A program made the translations under genes and the position numbers. From NCBI GenBank assembly GCA_951406725.2, contig OX597826.1:14570001-14634000 (forward strand): a stretch of 64,000 nucleotides of DNA. Reading direction: 5' to 3'. Position 1 is the stretch's first letter, and each line of letters begins with the position of its first letter. Of this stretch, positions 6,195-64,000 are shown piece after piece. This stretch comes from Octopus vulgaris (lineage: Eukaryota). The notes beneath the pieces were generated by a model. The model had not been told where the DNA came from. It did no database searches and saw nothing but the letters and a program-made list of their open reading frames with translations.

Positions 6195-6465
6195 GTTGTA
6201 TACTGTCAATATAACAAGAACGTGACAGTAGGGGGTACACCACCGTTGTATAGCCCTAGGAAGCATCGAACGCCTCCTGATGGCTTTGACACATTTTTCC
6301 CTGTGTCCTTATATACATATACGAAGGGGAGACAAACACCCCCGGCTGCCGAAGCTGCATCTAGGGACACGTGTTTCAGGATCGTTGTCCTTCATCGGCC
6401 TAGAGTATACTCTTTTTATATTTTTCATACACCCAACCACGTGCTTTCACACACCAACTCTCTCA

Positions 6466-14595: not shown

Positions 14596-15843
14596 CGAGG
14601 GGCGTTCAATTAGTAATGCCTCTGCAACTATTTATATTTTCATAAATTACGTGGCAAATTACAGCTCCGAACTAATTGTAGATTCTGATTTACAGGTGTT
14701 TGAAATGAGTCAAGTGGGAAATGGAGCCTGTTGAGTGTCGAGCAGTGATCCGGTTTTTGTATTTGAAATGACGCACACCACAGGATACTTTTGATGAAAT
14801 GAAAGTAACTTATGGTGATGATGCCTCATCATATGACCTTGTAAAACGATGGCATCGTGAATTCAAACATGGTCGGAACTCTGTGGAAACAGCTCCCAGA
14901 TCTGGTCGCACCCCTTCTGCCATTGATGAGGCATCTGTCCGTCTAGTTGAGGTTGCCATTTTGGAAGATCGACGCATAACTATTCGCCAAATAGCCCATG
15001 AGGTCAAGATTAGTACCGGGTCTGTGGAAACTATCATTCATGACCATTTGCATATGCAAAAGGTGTCTGCCAGATGGATTCCCAGGTTGCTCACACTTTT
15101 CCAGAAGCAAGAACGCGTCGAGTGCTCGAGGATGAATTTAGGGATGTGCCGAGAAGATGAGTCAAAATTTTTCAAAAGACTGATTACACAGGATGAGACC
15201 TGGGTCCATCACTATGATCCAGAGACCAAAGCCCAGTCAATGCAGCGGAAGCACCATGACTCACCTCCTCCAAAGAAGGCAAGGGTGCAGCCCTCCGCTG
15301 GCAAGGTCATGCTCACAGTCTTCTGGGACCAGGACGGAGTAGTTATGACAGATTTCCTGGCAAAGGGTACCACAATTATAGGAGCCTATCATGCTTCACT
15401 TTTGAGGAAATTAAGAGAAGCTATCAAAACCAAAAGGCGGGGCAAGATCAGCAAAGGCATCCTCCTCTTGCAGGACAACGCTCCGGTCCACAACTCGCGT
15501 GTCGCCAGATCAGAAGCACAGGCGTGCGGCTATGAACACTTCCCCCATCCCCCTACTCTCCTGACCTTGCACCCTCTGATTTTCACCTCTTTCCAGCCAT
15601 GAAGTTGTTTTTGAAAGGAAAGTGTTTCCCAGATGATGCAGCCTTGATTTCTGAAGTCACGTCGTGGTTGGAGGACCAAGCTGGGGTCTTCTACGAAAAC
15701 GGTCTCCATAGCTGCATCAAACAACGGGAGAAATGCGTAACTCTGAGTTCTTCCTATGTAGGAAAAGACTAATAACTGTGCCGTGTCGTTGCTCTACTGC
15801 TATGGGAAGTTGATCAGGGGCATTACTTATTGAACACCCCTCG
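14596..15843 (+). mobile_element. Full-length mariner transposon (irritans/Himar1-like), frameshifted
   Basis: ~29-bp TIRs cgaggggcgttcaattagtaatgcctctg / caggggcattacttattgaacacccctcg, TA target duplication on both sides, 1248 bp. Confidence 0.92.
14705..15772 (+). pseudogene. Mariner D,D34D transposase pseudogene
   Basis: ORF 14799-15602 has WIPRLL, DETW, QDNAPVH; YSPDLAPSDF lies in a shifted frame; N-terminus has a frameshift and stop. Confidence 0.9.
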
Positions 15844-17400: not shown

Positions 17401-19395
17401 AAGGAGATGAAGTTGTAGTCGATTGTGCTGATAGTGAATGACAACATAAATAAACTACAATATCATTATCAACAATAGCAACGAATTTGATTCTAAACAT
17501 TTTACAATGTGCTTGCTTCAATTACAATGAAAGAATAGTCTAGATTTCATATTTTAATCTATGTACACAGTAAATAAAAGCTAAACACCCTCTTCTGCTA
17601 CTGAACGGAATTCTATAAAAGAAGCTTAAATATTATATTTCAATAATAATTTATATTCAATAATGCGATTTGTCTTTTAATACGAAAATTATTTTTAGTA
17701 CAGGATTTTATATTATATTGAAGTTGAAATTTATTGAATAAATGTGGTGATTTGAGCAGTCTAGAAGCCGGTGAAAAGTTCCAGACTAAATACGTTACGT
17801 AGGTTAAAAGTTGATTCACTGAAAGACTTAGGTAAAAATTTCTCAGTTAATTGAATTTTCTTACACAATTAGAGATAGAAAATAAAAGCCAATGTGCAAA
17901 TGTTACGTATGGAAAAAATGTTTCGGCCCATAGAAATTGCATAATTAGAAAATATAAGTGAATTTGTTGCACGTTTTCTACATGTAGAAATCTGTTGTCA
18001 ATTGATCAAACAGGCTTGAGTAATCTTTGCTATGTTGTTTATCTGCCGCCAGTCGTCGCAACAGTGAGTTACGCAGCAATGACTTACGGCTTTGACACGA
18101 TTTGATCAGCTTTTTCCATGCTGGTCACTTTTCCCTTGACTTTGCCATTTTTCATGATTATTTCCCATCCACTTCATATTCTTTTTTGCAGGATGTTTGA
18201 ATTCTCAGTTTAATTCTTCCATGGACTTTTCGCCTTGTATAGTTGGGTGTAAATGAGTTGTCCGGGGGAATCCACTGTTACCTATCATGTGTATGTTTTC
18301 CAACCAATGTAAATTTCTGTCAATGAGAATTGCCATCTTAGGAGGTACCTCAGCACGCTTAGGATCTCATCATTCATGATTTGTCAAAGAGAGTAATATT
18401 CATAATTTGTCGCAAAGATATGATCTCCCATATGCAAATAAATTAATTGATTTTCTGCAATTAATTTCTCCACATTTTCATTCCAAGCCGTTTTTCTACA
18501 GCTAAGAGGGAAAATTCAATTAAGAGATCATTTAATGAGTACATCACTCAGTATGTCCCACCTCAACCTATTCAATGAGATTTATAACATTGGCTCACTC
18601 AGGTTATTACATTCATTTCATTTATTAGATGAATTGTTTTTGGTAAATTTCCACTCGGAAAGGGAATCTTATTGAAAGGCGTAACAGGGATCAATTAAAC
18701 CAGCTGTTTTCCCCCTGTGAAATATTGACGCCTTACACCAATGCACGAATTAATCATTACTGTAACAAGATTAAGCCATATTAAACAAGAGGTAGATTTC
18801 GGGAAAGCTATGGCTACTGCATATTCATTCCTACTGCGAGTGATTCCCGTTTTGATTCTTCTAGAAATTTATGGCCATGTTCCAAAGCAAACAGTGCTGA
18901 AAAATCACAATATGTAATATAATCAATAATGTAATAGAACGTCAGTGCAATGTTCATCTTCTCACTGCCCCACCATGAAGCAGTAAAAGCATACAGCTTT
19001 CTCAATCAATACGTATGTATATATGTTATTTAATGTACATTGGAATGAAAGCTACTAATAATTAATTGCTATTGAGACATTTTGGATAGGCAAATTTTTA
19101 TAACGTGTTCTGCGTCTCCAAGAACTCTCAGGCCCCGAGAAAATGTACCACTAATTTGAAAATAGAATGCTGGTACATGAGAATCCACGAGAAAAAACAT
19201 GAGAAAAATGATGCGAAAAGTCGAATGGGAAGACAATGGTTGAATGAAAGCGGATCAGTAAACTTTCTCTCTCTCTCTATCTCTCTGTCTCTCTGTATAT
19301 ATATATATGTGTGTGTGTGTATAAGTGTGTGTGCAAGTATATACATATGTCTGTGTGTGTGTTTGTGTGCGCGTGTGTGTGTATATGTACATATA

Positions 19396-20623
19396 CAGGG
19401 TGTCCTAAAAAAATGTATACACACTTTAGCAGCTGATAACTCAATTGATATTTTTTCTATAGGATTTAATGATGGCAGTCAGATTAAGCTTTGAACCAAG
19501 AAAATTCATTCTAAAATGATACTGGAAGTGTGAAAATGCAGTTGAAGTACAAAAACAGTTGGGGAGGGAGTTTCAAACAGATCCACCAATGCAACTCCCC
19601 ATCACTTGAATTAGAGATAAGTTTGAAGCTGATGGAACTGTTCAGAATGTCCACGATAAGCATTCCAGAAGACCCCGGACATCAACAACCCCAACAAAGC
19701 AAGGAGTACTGAAAATGAATCACCAAAGTCCAAGAAAATCTGTACGGCAAAGCGAGTCATGGAGTAGGTATTCCAAAATCATCTGTCCAATGCATTTTGA
19801 AGCATTGTCAATGGAAAAGTTACATTCCAAGATTAGTCCATGCTATTAATGATGATGATCCAGACGAAAGAGTGCAGCATTGCGAGTGGTACTTAGAACG
19901 ATGTGTAGAAGCTGCACACTTTCCAACAAAAATTGTGTGGAGTGATGAAGCCACATTCAAATTAAATGGTTCAATTAACTGCCACAGTTGCACCTACTAG
20001 GGTCCTGCATGTTATGGTGAAACACCATGTTAATTTGATATTTGTGTGGTGTGGTGTGGTTTATCATCAAGAGGATTAATTGGACCATTCTTTTTTTATG
20101 TTACTGTGACTGGTCCCGTTTACTTGAACTTGTTGCAACAGTCTGTTATGCCAAGCATTAGCGAAGACTTTGAAGATGAGGAGTTTTATTTTCAGCAAGA
20201 TGGGGGCACCCCCACACTACCATTGCTATGTTAGATCCTTCCTTGATGAGATCTTGCTAAACAGGTGGATTGGATGAAGAGGTATGGTTGAATTCACCAG
20301 ACCTCACACCACTAGACTTTTCTTTATGGGGATACCTTAAAGACAAATTCTACGCTATGAAACCTACAAGTCGCTGATTTGAGAGCAGCCATTGGACGAG
20401 AGTGCACACAAATACCAAACAAATTCTTTTGTGACATTTGTGATTCCATTCCTTTGCGTTGTCAGCAGTGCCTAGACCAGACCGGACATCAGTTTGAAAA
20501 CAGGCATTGACAAAACAATAAAATAATGTCTGTAGATTCTATTAAATTTTGAAAATGAAGTGTCTTTTAATAAACAACTACTTTACAATTGTTTAAAGTG
20601 TGCATACATTTTTTGGGGACACC

Positions 20624-20626
<3 letters not shown>
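19396..20626 (+). mobile_element. Full-length Tc1/mariner-superfamily transposon (DD41D/rosa-like), decayed
   Basis: TIRs cagggtgtcctaaaaaaatgtatacacacttt / aaagtgtgcatacattttttggggacaccctg, TA duplication; [32 protein letters not shown], SPDLTPLDFxLWG in broken frames. Confidence 0.88.
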
Positions 20627-20681
<55 letters not shown>

Positions 20682-20871
20682 TAAGTAATTAAGGGTTTAG
20701 CAACGAATTGCCTCACCAACACACCGAATTTAGAAATAGCAGTCAAAGAGATATAGCTATTCCTTCTACTAAAGGGGGATCTCAGTAAAAACACAGCACT
20801 TGAAAGGCAAACACAGACAGGTAAGAAAGAAAGAATGAAATGACGGCAATCTATCATGCAATTTTAAGTTA

Positions 20872-20963
20872 CCTACGGACGTACGTTTCGAGATCAAGTT
20901 TTAGGATAGCATAAGAATTAGAAAATTCTAATTTACCCAAACTTCTTCTCTCATCGGCGCAGG
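20872..20963 (-). ncRNA. Type I hammerhead ribozyme with extended stem II (U4C core variant)
   Basis: CCUGCG-CCGAUGA-GAGA[~53 nt structured]UCUC-GAAA-CGUACG-UC-CGUAGG. Confidence 0.8.
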
Positions 20964-21379
20964 ATACGACAATTATGAATAATTGTATATTAAATTTTGA
21001 GATACTAGAATGCATCATCTCAACTCAGTGTCAGAGCGAGCCAAAGCATGACCAGTACCACGAAATTCAAAGTTTGAATGAAAGTTTGTGTCACCAGCCC
21101 CCTTCCACCCGCGTGTAGCCAAGACAAAATGCTGCGGTCATTTACTGGGATAAAATATGGTTATCAGTAATAATAAAGGGTGAAATTAATTAATTAGGGA
21201 TAATTATCAATTACACCAAGTAGATTTCGGCATGTGACAAGGGGGCTGGTGACACAAACTTTCATTCAAACTTTGAATTTCGTGGTACTGGTCATGCTTT
21301 GGCTCGCTCTGACACTGAGTTGAGATGATGCATTCTAGTATCTCAAAATTTAATATACAATTATTCATAATTGTCGTAT

Positions 21380-21468
21380 CCTGCGATGAGAGAAGAAGTT
21401 TGGGTAAAGTAGAATTTTCTAATTCTTATGCTATCCTAAAACTTGATCTCGAAACGTACGTCCGTAGG
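21380..21468 (+). ncRNA. Hammerhead copy with 3-nt deletion in the catalytic core (probably inactive)
   Basis: CCUGCG-(CCG missing)AUGA-GAGA...UCUC-GAAA-CGUACG-UC-CGUAGG; otherwise nearly identical to 20872-20963. Confidence 0.75.
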
Positions 21469-21753
21469 TAACTTAAAATTGCATGATAGATTGCCGTCAT
21501 TTCATTCTTTCTTTCTTATGTCTGTGTTTGCCTTTCAAGTGCTGTGTTTTTACTGAGATCCCCCTTTTAGTAGAAGGAATAGCTATATCTCTTTGACTGC
21601 TATTTCTAAATTCGGTGTGTTGGTGAGGCAATTCGTTGCTAAACCCTTAATTACTTAGTATTACTTAAATTTTCCTCGAATGGGGCTTCTACATGCCGAA
21701 ATCTACTTGGTGTAATTGATAATTATCCCTAATTAATTAATTTCACCCTTTAT

Positions 21754-21806
<53 letters not shown>

Positions 21807-21809
<3 letters not shown>

Positions 21810-22429
21810 CAGCATGTAAAGGACCAATTCATGTCAAAGAGAGTAATATTCATAAATAATTAGGGATCAGCAAACGATTTGCGTCACCACATACTGAAGT
21901 TTAGAAATAGCAGTCAAATTCTTGGCTATTCTTTCTACTTTAAAGGGAGATCCCAGAGGAACCGAAGCACTCAAAAGCAAACCACGCAGGTAGAAGGGAA
22001 AAAAGACGAAACTCATTCTATAATAAGTTGCCTACGGACGCGCATTTCGGAATTAAGTCAGAATAGAGCACAAATAATAAATAATTATACTTTACCTGAC
22101 TATTTTCCTCATCAGCGTAGGATTCTTCAACTATAAATAATTGTGTCTCAATCATTAATAATTGTGTATTAAATTTGAAGGCACTGGGAACCGCCATTTC
22201 ACCTCACGGTATCAGAGAGAATGTGTAGCTTGCCAGTACCACCAAATTCAAAAGAGTGATTGAGAGTAGGTTAACTCTCCCCTGTCCACCAGCGCGTTGT
22301 CAAAGTAAGATACTATAGTTTTTTTTTTATGGGAGAAAATACCATTATCAGTAATACCAAAAGGGTGAAATTAATTAATTACGAAGTAATCATTAATTTC
22401 ACCATGTAGAATTCAGCATGTAAAGGTCC
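21807..22429 (-). mobile_element. One full 604-nt monomer (plus terminal redundancy) of a diverged subfamily of the same HHR unit
   Basis: attcagcatgtaaagg at 21807 and 22411; collinear similarity to the 20679-21758 unit (ttagaaatagcagtcaaa, ccagtaccac, aagggtgaaattaattaatta). Confidence 0.8.
22031..22121 (-). ncRNA. Canonical-core type I hammerhead ribozyme with extended stem II
   Basis: CCUACG-CUGAUGA-GGAA(aau)AGUCAG...CUGACU(uaa)UUCC-GAAA-UGCGCG-UC-CGUAGG. Confidence 0.88.
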
Positions 22430-22800
22430 TTACCACTCTTTGTCTTCACTCTCGTTACCAATGTATCCTTATGCCTTTCGCTTTTCTCATCTCTACATAT
22501 GACTACGCATTCTGATAAATTCTACCACCACAACTGGTAAACAGAAATGATCGTGAATGAACTATTACTACCACTGCTCTTTATTAATTAATTAGATAAA
22601 TAGCTCACTACCGCAAACGACTTTCTTCTTCCTGTTATTTTCCTCCATTTACTTCTTGTATATAATTTAAACTACGGTTTACCCGTTGAATTACCTGCTA
22701 CCGTATACCTTTACCAAGGACTGTACCTACGCAGCTAATCACCAGGAGCGCCTTTGGATTTGACCATCCCTTAGAGGTTTTAAACACCTCTAATTTATAT

Positions 22801-22811
22801 CTACATATGTG

Positions 22812-22886
<75 letters not shown>

Positions 22887-22965
22887 ACATATATATATAT
22901 GTATTCATATATATGTATGTATATATGTGTATGCATATATGTATGTATGTATATATGTATGTGTG

Positions 22966-23022
<57 letters not shown>

Positions 23023-23025
23023 ATA
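22801..23025. repeat. (TA)n/(TATG)n microsatellite
   Basis: Direct inspection. Confidence 0.95.
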
Positions 23026-46612: not shown

Positions 46613-48541
46613 TTAGATGAGGAGGGGGGCAGAGTTGAGACCAAATGGCGTATAAGAGCGAAGAGAGAAGATTAATTCCTGTTCACGGCGCAAACGGGAA
46701 TCCGGATGGCCTCTGTGTAAGCACAAACCGAACACAGACAGGTGTTGCAAGGAGTGACCGGTGGAGCGGAAATGGCGTGAGACCGGTGTGTCGTACGCAA
46801 GGCGGATGTCACGAAGGTGTTCCGCGAACCGGTCAGCCAAGCGGCGTCCCGTTTGTCCGATGTACAGGGAATGGCAGAGAGAGCAAGAGATGCAATAGAT
46901 AATATTGCTGGAGGTGCAGGTGAAGGAGTTGAAGATGCGATAGGGTCGATGATGGGTGCCAGTGAGGAGGGTGGTGTTGGAGAGGTAAGGGCAAGTGCGA
47001 CAACGTGGGCGGGAGCAGGGGAACGAGCCAGGTTGGGAGGTAGGGTCAGGGAGGGAGCTATGGACCAAAAGGTCTCGAAGGTTATGGGCTCGTTTGAAAG
47101 AGGGGAGGGGTCGGTTAGGGAAGAGGTGTGAAGTGGACGGGTCGGACTGAAGATGACGGAAAGCTCGAAGAATGGTGCGTTGGAGAGGTAGGGTAGTGGG
47201 GTGGTAAGTGAGGGGAAAATGGAGGCGGGAGACTACAGGGCGAGTTCGGGGAGAGAGAGCAGATACACGGTCCACGGAACGTGCTCTGGCAAGGGCGGTG
47301 TGGATAGTGGTGAGGTGGTATCCACGTAGGATGAAATGGTGAGCCATACGTTGAGACTGAGTCTCAAAGTCATGGTCGTCACTACAGAGCCTACGTAGAC
47401 GGAGGAATTGGGAATAGGGGATGGAAAGCTTGGTGTGTTCTGGGTGGGAGGAAGAGAAGTTGAGGTATGAGTGTGAGTCTGTGTTATTGTAGTGAATGGA
47501 GGTGGTAAGAGTGAAGTGAAGAATGCTAACCGAAATGTCGAGGAAGGAGACAGAGGTGTTGGAGATAGTGGAAGTGAAGTGGAGGGCTGGATGGAAAGAT
47601 TGAACAAAAGAGAGGAAGGAATCTAGATGTTCACGGGAGAGTGAGGTGGCACCGATAATGTCGTCAATGTAACGACCATATAGTTCAGGAGTGGGACCAG
47701 TGAAATTAGAGAATATTTGGGCCTCAACATAGCCAACGAACAGGTTCGCATAGTTGGGGCCCATTCGCGTTCCCATGGCCACTCCCGAGATCTGATGGTA
47801 GAACTCGCCCGTGAACGAGAAGCAGTTATAAGTAAGGACAAGTTCGGCCAGACGAATGAGTGTGGAGGTGTCAGGTTCAGGGTTGGAGCGGAGGTCAAGA
47901 AAGTGTTGAAGTGCCTGCAGTCCTTCGTGGTGAGGGATAACGGTATAGAGGCTCTGAATGTCCATAGTAAAAAGGATTTTGGAGGAGCCGGGAGGAAAGG
48001 AGAAAGAGTTGAAAAGCCGGAGAGCATGGTTGGTATCGTGGATGTGGGAGGGAAGAGATGCCACAAGGGGGGCAAGGACACGGTCGAGGTATTTAGAGAT
48101 GAGCTCCGTGGGGCAGTTACAGGCGGAGACGATGGGGCGGCCAGGGTTGTTGGGTTTGTGGATTTTGGGGAGGAAGTAAATGGTGGGGGTACGTGGGGTT
48201 CGCACAATTAGGTTGGATGCGGTGTGGGGGAGACGGGAGGGCGAGATGAGGTCGCGGACAGTAGAGGATACCGTCTGTTGGTAGCTACGTGTGGGGTTAG
48301 AGGACAGAGGGGAGTAGAAGGAGGTGTCATTGAGTTAGCGGAAAGCCTCGGCCCTGTAGAGGTCCGCGCTCCACACCACTACAGCTCCACCCTTGTCAGC
48401 CGGTTTGATGATAATATCAGCGCGCCGTTGGAGGGAACGAAGAGCCGAGAGCTCAGCCGGGGAGATGTTGAGGCGGCGTTGGCGCCTGGAGAAGTTAAAC
48501 CGCTCCAATGCACGCTGACAAGCGCCCGCGAAAAGATCCAC
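46613..48541 (-). pseudogene. Penelope-like reverse transcriptase / GIY-YIG endonuclease, one premature stop
   Basis: ORFs 48335-48541 and 46613-48205 are the same frame split by a single TAA at 48335-48337; IKPADKGGAVVV, LPKIHK..PGRPIVS, DIQSLYT, GVAMGTRMGP, RYIDD, CSRPRCRTC, NIIYCISC..YIGQTGR, PFGLN. Confidence 0.92.
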
Positions 48542-62049: not shown

Positions 62050-64000
62050 GGCAGTAAAATAGAATGTAATCAGTGTTGTCTAAAACTAGCATAGGCGATA
62101 TATTCCACCATATTCAAGAAAATCGAAGGCACTTCGTGCCTATAAAGTTTATCCCGATCAGGCAAAGCTCCCTGGAAGCACTGCCAGTCCAGAGACTTTT
62201 TGAAATCATCCATCCGTTCCGGTCCGAAAGTTCTCCGGAAAAGAGCCACTAGCTAATCTTCTTCAACGCTCAAGAACATCATCGCACTTTTCCTCCACTA
62301 ATCCTCTATAAAAAGCTAAAGAGGATGTACCACCTATCGCACAGTCCGTTTGACTGAGAGCAGTGAGCGTTTGTAAACATTCCACTATCCAAATGGCTAG
62401 TTTCTTTAACGGAGCTGCAGTATTGGGTGAAACAGAGCCACGGAAATACGTTTCTGACGAACGGTGACCACACTTGTTCACCGTCAAGGAAGCACTGGAG
62501 CCTCAGCACATGTCTGTGCATCATCAACCGCGGCTTGCCCAGGCCACTACGCAGCAGGTACTGCGAACAGATAGACCACTTGACCATCAGGACGCGTCCC
62601 TTCCACAAGGAGTGGAAGAGTATACGCTCCAGCGTAATCCGATGGTGGCCAGGACAAGGCACGACGGTCAAGGGATAATAGATGACGGACGCGATATACA
62701 CGTTAGCCATCTTTGCCCGACCTTTCAAGAATTGTTTTCTCTCGGCCCATTTCTAGGTGAGAGTAGTCACACTGTTCGTTACTGCGACCCATCTAGAGGT
62801 CCGAACTGAACCGGACCACGAGCAACTTAACGAGTCCGTCCGTCCAGTGTCCAACGACATAGTTTGACGGCATGGACATACTTCTCCAGGTACCGAGCCG
62901 CAAGCCCACTGATTTTTCGTGGTTAATTGGTTAATTGTCGCTCTTGAAACCGCCTCTTAGTCCCTGAGAACGGAGTCGATCATTTCTATGTGTTTATGAT
63001 CCGACAAAACTATAGTGACCTTGTCGGTATATGCTGACACGCATCTCCCACATCCTAGGCCACGTGGGATGTCTCTCAATGCCTCCAGTTTGTGTAGTAG
63101 TGGCTCGTGAGTCAGTACATACAACTGAGACGAGAGGGGACAACTTTGCCGAACCGAGCACATGATATCGAACGGCTCTGAGAGGTGACCGTTCACTCTG
63201 ATCGCTGAACACACGTCGCTGTGCATTGCAGCGATGCAGCTCCTGAATACAAGTCCGAAACCAGATGCCTTAAGGACAGCCGCCAGGTATAGATGCTCGA
63301 CCCTATCGAAAGCTTTTGTCTGATCTAAATTGATCAGGGCCCCACCCGTGCTAGGTTCTTTAGCCACTTTCTCAATAATGTATTGCATGAGGTGGAGGTT
63401 GTCGTGGATGGATCCTTTCGGGATGGCGCATATGTGTACCTTACTTACATGATCCCCGACAACAAGCGCCAACCTCATAGCTAACAGCTCGGCCAAAATT
63501 TTAAACTCTGCATTCAGTAGAGTTATGGACCTAAAGTTGTCAATATTGTTTGCCTTGTTCGGTTCTTTTTATCAGCAACCTCACCGCTCATCGGCTCACA
63601 AAACTGGGAATTCTCCCATTCTGTTAGTACTTGCATTAAGCGTTTACTAAGAGGTCGCCGAACAAGTCTGACACGTAAGCGTAAAGCTCGTTGAGCAAAC
63701 CATCCCAACTAGACGATTTATCCATCGTGCTGCTAGCCATTGCTTCCCGTATTTGAAAGGCTGTTATCAGTTTTTCGCATCGTTCTGCCTCTGTCGATGA
63801 GATCCACGGCAGCCCGTCGAGGTAGGACGTGAAATCGATCCTGCGACCCGGCTGACCACTGCTCCCGTACAGTTGAGCGAATCGCCGCTGAAAAGCTGCT
63901 CACGTATGTTTGTGATCAGTTATGACCTTCGTGGCCCGACAAGGATCAGATCGTGAATTTATTGCCACTTAGCAGATTGAACGCCTTTCGTCCCTTCGTG
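62050..64000 (-). mobile_element. Decayed Tx1/L1-clade LINE RT region (runs off window)
   Basis: SIHDNLHL, LINLDQTKAFDRVEH, SVRQSCPLS, AYTDKVT (degenerate YADD); AFYRGLVE shared with the 41391-42516 copy. Confidence 0.85.

Follow-up and report, generated by a model that had tools for sequence, protein, structure and literature searches.

We consider it probable that the segment at 21807-22429 of the window (the whole stretch of 64,000 nucleotides of Octopus vulgaris DNA analysed here) represents one arm, truncated at its 5' end, of a non-coding hammerhead repeat with many copies, likely a non-LTR retrozyme copied by a Penelope-like enzyme from a circular RNA template, and that the 19-nt repeat at its two ends likely reflects by chance where the copy was cut off. 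A first look at the genome, which is microsatellite-rich and 2.8 Gb in size, gave 2138 candidates for the repeat unit of this family (family B), of which 40 were scored. The longest stop-free frame in the doubled 604-nt unit is 90 codons, so that the unit has no protein-coding capacity, as is characteristic of retrozymes. When the 604-nt monomer was aligned with the neighbouring unit (subfamily A), a check proposed in the first-pass annotation of this DNA, the two were collinear round the whole 588-nt unit with identity in 425 of 568 columns (75%), and the alignment score was 555 vs 139±15 for shuffles. The features of the locus are listed in Table 1.

Table 1. Features of the composite locus in the window
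Feature	Position	Strand	Description
Subfamily A insertion	20681-21756	.	Much younger neighbour; short-start arm 20681-21235 and inverted long-start arm 21239-21756
(TA)n tract	21757-21805	.	Between family A insertion and B arm; likely priming site
Family B arm	21807-22429	-	1.03 turns of the 604-nt unit, non-coding, with RNA sense on the minus strand; 21807 is a non-canonical 3' end, 22429 a 5' truncation
Redundancy copy 1	21807-21825	+	19 nt (16 exact), unit position 1-19
Family 'short' reverse-transcription start	21853-21860	-	Unit ~47; internal in B copy; 37/78 arms
Type I hammerhead motif, family B	22031-22121	-	6-bp stem I, ~60-nt stem II, short stem III; palindromic loop III (C to T mutation here); predicted cut between 22037 and 22036
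Family 'long' start region	22339-22360	-	Unit ~533-554; internal in B copy; 37/78 arms
Predicted 40-nt hairpin	22364-22403	-	In the 'tail' between the start sites; part best conserved between subfamilies
Redundancy copy 2	22411-22429	+	Internal element sequence, ending at family C junction
Family C	22430-22799	+	5'-truncated 3' end of Hydra-clade Penelope-like element, head-to-head with B arm; ends at distal fixed terminus
Degenerate hammerhead, family C	22506-22561	+	Core CTGATAA and GTG in this copy, vs CTGATGA and GTA in most relatives
TA-rich microsatellite	22796-23025	.	Right-hand border of the composite

Arms and start sites of family B

After removal of 13 duplicate or own loci, 78 arms from 48 other loci were mapped on the B unit, and 74 of the 78 start at two sites, 37 at the short start (unit ~47) and 37 at the long start (~533-556), with 4 elsewhere; these arm frequencies are biased, since the samples are top-scoring matches that favour long copies and one sample was chosen by the tail motif. 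Read as RNA, both starts correspond to 3' ends, and the ~110 nt that separate them include a predicted hairpin. Printed flanks show that nearly all family arms start on (TA)n, the target of non-autonomous Penelope-like elements (PLEs), and the family as a whole has the fixed 3' ends, 5' truncation, partial tandems, inverted copies and one-sided tail of PLEs; the B copy itself is without a canonical 3' end. Inverted pairs consisted of one short and one long arm in 22 of 27 cases in family B and in 18 of 23 in subfamily A, and never of two long arms. An origin of the inverted arm as a fold-back copy was rejected, because the short arm extends past the long arm in 11 of the 22 pairs.

Arms longer than one unit are frequent (15/78 in the B lineage, 41/64 in subfamily A), and arms that run across two cut sites (6/78 and 20/64, respectively) establish the head-to-tail tandem arrangement known from retrozymes, with the B copy having one hammerhead. 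The 5' ends, where reverse transcription stopped, are scattered round the unit in both lineages with no pile-up at the cut site. Run-off on a cleaved linear monomer was rejected, as there are no 5' ends at the cut (unit position 231; the nearest are at 223 and 240), and the scarless passes of the cut site speak against jumping from end to end of linear monomers. At three loci (L226, L018, L026) the insertion has three parts, one arm containing an additional jump suggestive of template switching, and one family copy (L028:1480-2230) lies outside a TA tract with a direct repeat of ~15 nt on both flanks, possibly a true target-site duplication (TSD).

Hammerhead motifs

A type I hammerhead core with stems, a defining property of retrozymes, was found in each unit by motif scan and by alignment across subfamilies. 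In the B copy the core lies on the minus strand (CTGATGA 22115-22109, GAAA 22048-22045, GTC 22039-22037), and the core of the canonical CUGAUGA/GAAA/GUC hammerhead described in the first-pass annotation is thus present. The word canonical holds less well for the motif as a whole: this copy reads GAAAT where its 11 aligned relatives (12 aligned in all) read GAAAC, so that stem III is weakened and the palindromic loop broken, and the Rfam hammerhead models gave no match at the gathering or E-value threshold, probably because stem II is ~60 nt long. It is the core motif, stem I and their conservation that suggest a hammerhead. The lowest-energy predicted folds put the core pairing in an inactive form, and compensatory change was seen in only 3 of 29 pairs; the circular fold of the unit has z = -5.2 vs 40 shuffles.

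Related motifs occur elsewhere. The core of young subfamily A is CCGATGA, not CTGATGA (window 20870-20965, minus strand, and the L209 unit), with no recurrent variant there, and the right A arm of the window is also without 2 nt at the hammerhead core. A further type I hammerhead-like motif with palindromic loop III and a short stem II lies at 6366-6398 (minus strand) of the window, and more hammerhead families with a stem II of 54-60 nt and palindromic loop III stand beside TA tracts at five other loci (L020, L045, L088, L089, L024), the copy at L089 being an inverted pair.

Shared variants in subfamily A and the template

Subfamily A is young, its insertions being 99% identical, and the set analysed (39 loci and 64 arms, after 11 overlapping loci had been removed and one arm under 95% dropped) includes an arm of 4.26 turns, the longest found. 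At the 13,932 positions of these 39 loci that are covered more than once, 13 single-insertion variants (private relative to the 39 subfamily A loci) were common to all covering turns or arms vs 45 that were private and unshared, where coincidence would give 0.012 common ones. An older subfamily gave 15 shared vs 93 unshared private variants at 28 loci, mapped on a 596-nt unit though its period is 599, which leaves a small junction offset. At a three-allele site both arms agreed in 13 of 13 A insertions, with 0.37 expected for each. Some A insertions are mixed: in 2 of 14 the two arms carry unlike alleles at site 173, and L181, L186, L188 and L209 contain individual turns that deviate at polymorphic sites. 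Moreover, 74 of 76 passes of the cut site in subfamily A show no difference within 14 nt, and the other two belong to one poorly aligned arm.

Repeated copying of one monomeric template would predict this pattern of shared variants, and a first pass over the data favours one monomer read from two fixed sites. Shared private variants could alternatively stem from uncleaved linear transcripts of homogeneous tandem arms, or from gene conversion between turns or arms. The corresponding account, in which uncleaved transcripts of tandem arms are copied, the hammerhead is incidental and homogeneity comes from the sources or from gene conversion, seems to us unlikely. In its favour, the genome has multi-turn sources (20 arms, at 16 of the 39 loci, run over two cut sites), the substrate that dominated in vitro was uncleaved RNA (PMC11167929), and seamless passes of the cut site agree with it as well. 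However, this account must regenerate length, because each daughter copy is 5'-truncated, and it has to accommodate many distinct haplotypes, each homogeneous inside its insertion. No recurring turn-offset differences stood out at the 52 discordant sites (45 of them private), and no long array was present among the 37 exact motif matches or the best-40 lists.

We do not follow the first-pass annotation where it took the B copy as independent support for a circular template, since over-unit arms are routine in these families and any multimeric template yields terminal redundancy; by itself, the B copy does not discriminate between a circular template and a linear multimer. That the template is circular is probably right, and young subfamily A supports this much better than the B copy does.

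Family C and the B-C junction

The B arm is joined on its right to family C, for which we found 1086 genome candidates. Family C has fixed ends at 22799 and 22664, it is old and broken in the copies examined, and other copies continue for more than 1.4 kb into remnants of a reverse transcriptase (RT) and endonuclease (EN), on which Pfam was silent. Read by eye in the translations of other C copies and compared with the definition of the Hydra clade in section 11 of PMC8557442, these relatives have the CxCX5C linker, DKT, CxxC and CxH round E and N, and a C-terminal EN, together with a hammerhead and (TA)n ends, and they are thus assigned to that clade. The two-start architecture is the same as in A and B, and inspection by eye showed the asymmetry in 11 of 12 pairs of neighbours on opposite strands; the terminal region of C showed no significant similarity to A or B (best E 0.04, AT-rich). 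Contigs in two of four runs (X1, X2) bridge the B-C junction, which is therefore no assembly artefact; none of the runs' contigs spans the whole B locus.

It is conceivable, if improbable, that B and C arose together as the paired arms of a single insertion, in which retrozyme RNA was the template at one nick and RNA of the Hydra element at the other. The enzyme behind such an event, likewise improbable, would be a dimeric Hydra-clade protein that as a rule makes two copies of a single retrozyme circle, one on each nicked strand and each from its own fixed site, and that here would have used two RNAs, the circle on the left and its own RNA on the right. If true, the B-C composite would preserve, as a fossil, an event of twin priming on two templates and would thereby identify the helper element. 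The two families stand head-to-head with TA on both outer ends and none between them, there is a short imperfect similarity at their junction, and their private divergence is similar (B 14/622 vs C 11/368, p = 0.53), the dating of B against C being not significant. Against this, it is the sole such junction among 172 classed 5' junctions at 111 loci (41 redundant loci having been removed), of which 28 end in unrelated flank. Arms normally carry one haplotype, both arms would here carry tail sequence, a pairing absent from the 27 and 23 inverted pairs, and B resembles its nearest relatives more closely (96-98%) than C does its own (93-94%).

The terminal repeat of the B copy

The observations of the first-pass annotation on the repeat itself were confirmed. 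By exact matching over the whole window the 16-mer occurs at 21807 and 22411 only. If a single A/T mismatch is allowed, the match is 19 nt long, at a spacing of 604; about 2e-4 pairs would be expected by chance in 623 nt. Its likeness to the reverse complement of 21682-21702 in the neighbouring unit was seen directly. The motif forms the internal tandem junction in other family copies and also in the other subfamily, and it is element sequence rather than a TSD, as had been proposed; a TSD or local tandem duplication as the source of the pair, for which the B locus offers nothing and only the flanking repeat of L028 a parallel, is refuted by these internal occurrences and can be set aside as extremely improbable.

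The statement that the copy is exactly one monomer is correct in its arithmetic (623 = 604 + 19), but neither end is a terminus of the family, and the placement in the same TA tract as subfamily A applies to the left end alone, the right end being fused without TA to another repeat family. The left end lies 46 nt into the tail, off both family start sites, and none of the 78 other family arms starts at unit position 1, so that a start of reverse transcription at 21807 is unsupported. A genome-wide search with an exact pattern, TA directly preceding the motif in its majority form, had 0 matches; this pattern misses the variant of the window itself.

We regard as quite improbable the proposal that reverse transcription began at 21807 on a circle and proceeded for one turn plus 19 nt, with the redundancy as a signature of the mechanism. 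The period and redundancy are real, arms of 1.01-1.02 turns exist (3 of 64 subfamily A arms exceed one turn by 30 nt or less), the anole PLE starts internally on its RNA (PMC11167929), and 4 of the 78 arms start at other positions; yet besides the lack of a second arm with this start, stops are scattered round the unit, and on its right the copy is fused to another element. Even if true, the proposal would not separate a circle from a linear multimer.

The junction letters at 21807 are compatible with the long start followed by the loss of ~65 nt spanning the hairpin, and a contig in run X5, which may be a paralogue, joins identical TA-end letters to the long start, indicating that long starts with such letters exist. 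Judged by these few letters, the B arm most likely began at the long start and later lost ~65 nt including the tail hairpin. Loss of the left end through the subfamily A insertion was rejected, as no B remnant lies to the left of A, which abuts the mariner end and TA. Since the non-canonical left end and the fusion on the right set the 19-nt redundancy, the figure of one turn plus 19 nt is most likely a coincidence, and "exactly one turn" is probably no more than that. The copy is a doubly truncated relic, which would be dead with its one mutated hammerhead.

Proposed mechanism

In line with what has been demonstrated for other animal retrozymes, a genomic arm with two hammerheads would be transcribed, and self-cleavage would release a unit-length RNA that is ligated into a circle. 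A Penelope-like RT/GIY-YIG protein, most likely of the Hydra clade, would act in trans and nick both strands of (TA)n, and each nick would prime cDNA at one of the two fixed sites ~110 nt apart on the same RNA. The two start sites and the pairing of one of each are observed in the copies, and because of the shared haplotypes we infer that one RNA molecule served both arms. The RT would then continue beyond the cut site, covering between 0.1 and more than 4 turns before it stops at random, and the cDNA ends would join each other or the flank, in keeping with structures seen in the copies. At the B locus only one arm is present, and its 5' end would have joined the adjacent Hydra-element remnant.

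Comparison with known elements

Judged by its sequence features, the element appears to be a new family of animal non-LTR retrozymes, or non-autonomous PLEs. Circular templates were proposed for more-than-unit PLE copies in 2014 (PMC4209133), Cervera and de la Pena 2020 (PMC7229834) demonstrated circles of animal retrozymes and proposed mobilisation by PLEs with a circular template, and Li et al. 2026 (10.64898/2026.07.22.740005) argued that retrozymes are non-autonomous PLE derivatives. Like animal non-LTR retrozymes, our element is non-coding and low in GC, with head-to-tail units that each carry one type I hammerhead, it occurs as monomer and multimer copies, and its unit falls inside the 51-972 bp range given in 10.64898/2026.07.22.740005. 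It differs in unit length, ~590-604 nt vs ~300 in those retrozymes, and in that its copies are dispersed partial tandems, with 3' ends fixed at two sites and with inverted, asymmetric arms on (TA)n. Circles were shown there, whereas A and B are known here from genomic DNA, and no homologous PLE terminal repeat was found among the loci compared. The main text of PMC7229834 nowhere uses 'inverted', 'target site' or 'Octopus'.

With PLEs as described by Craig et al. 2021 (PMC8557442) and Frangieh et al. 2024 (PMC11167929) the element shares 5' truncation, partial tandems, an inverted 5' copy, a tail at one end, (TA)n targets, a hammerhead with palindromic loop III, two RT start sites that bound the tail and priming of both strands, the last two as found in vitro (PMC11167929). 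In contrast to the PLEs of these accounts it has no ORF, a tail of ~110 nt rather than 30-40, and up to 4.3 seamless turns. Plant LTR retrozymes have a similar circle size (600-800 nt) and are also non-autonomous (PMC7229834; 10.64898/2026.07.22.740005), but their type III hammerhead, LTRs, 4-bp TSD and Gypsy helper, as given in these sources, were not seen in family A/B, and a plant-type LTR retrozyme was rejected on the type I topology and the absence of an LTR pair.

The single B copy matters little in itself, and the value lies in the evidence at the level of the family. This evidence bears on how PLEs make tandem, inverted and tailed insertions, and on whether retrozyme circles are the template. 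In PMC8557442 the PLE cycle is described as undefined, and insertion by the anole PLE in vitro proceeded from uncleaved RNA and was unaffected by mutation of the hammerhead (PMC11167929). Young subfamily A, with its many 99%-identical, haplotype-marked insertions, offers a genomic test of the template question. No description of the family or of the haplotype test was found in the literature searched, which was without most subscription journals, repeat databases and supplements.

Candidate helper elements and other elements of the window

The genome contains many intact RT+GIY-YIG elements of 781 aa and several Hydra-type families. Among 38 GIY-YIG loci or stretches and 25 Hydra-type loci, a small part of 6136 GIY-YIG candidates, none had a terminal repeat homologous to A or B, and the Hydra-type families match C only. 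Our guess is that a Hydra-clade PLE may be the helper, because family C has a similar hammerhead type, the TA target and the two-start asymmetry. One intact 781-aa RT+GIY-YIG element (L111, G000:C16:20834500-20841500) has a 456-nt terminal repeat and many copies with the same 781-aa frame; no hammerhead and no homology to A, B or C were detected in it, and its upstream 359-aa frame has no Pfam match.

A Penelope-like RT+GIY-YIG frame with 27% identity to L111 (E 2e-63) is also present in the window at 46613-48500 (minus strand), where in-frame stops precede an open stretch of 573 aa. Moreover, we take ~19380-20626 and 14772-15602 to be remnants of mariner-like transposases, the former of which has an inverted repeat at its end, immediately ahead of the TA tract, and 62957-63568 (minus strand) is presumably an RT-like frame of a non-LTR retrotransposon.
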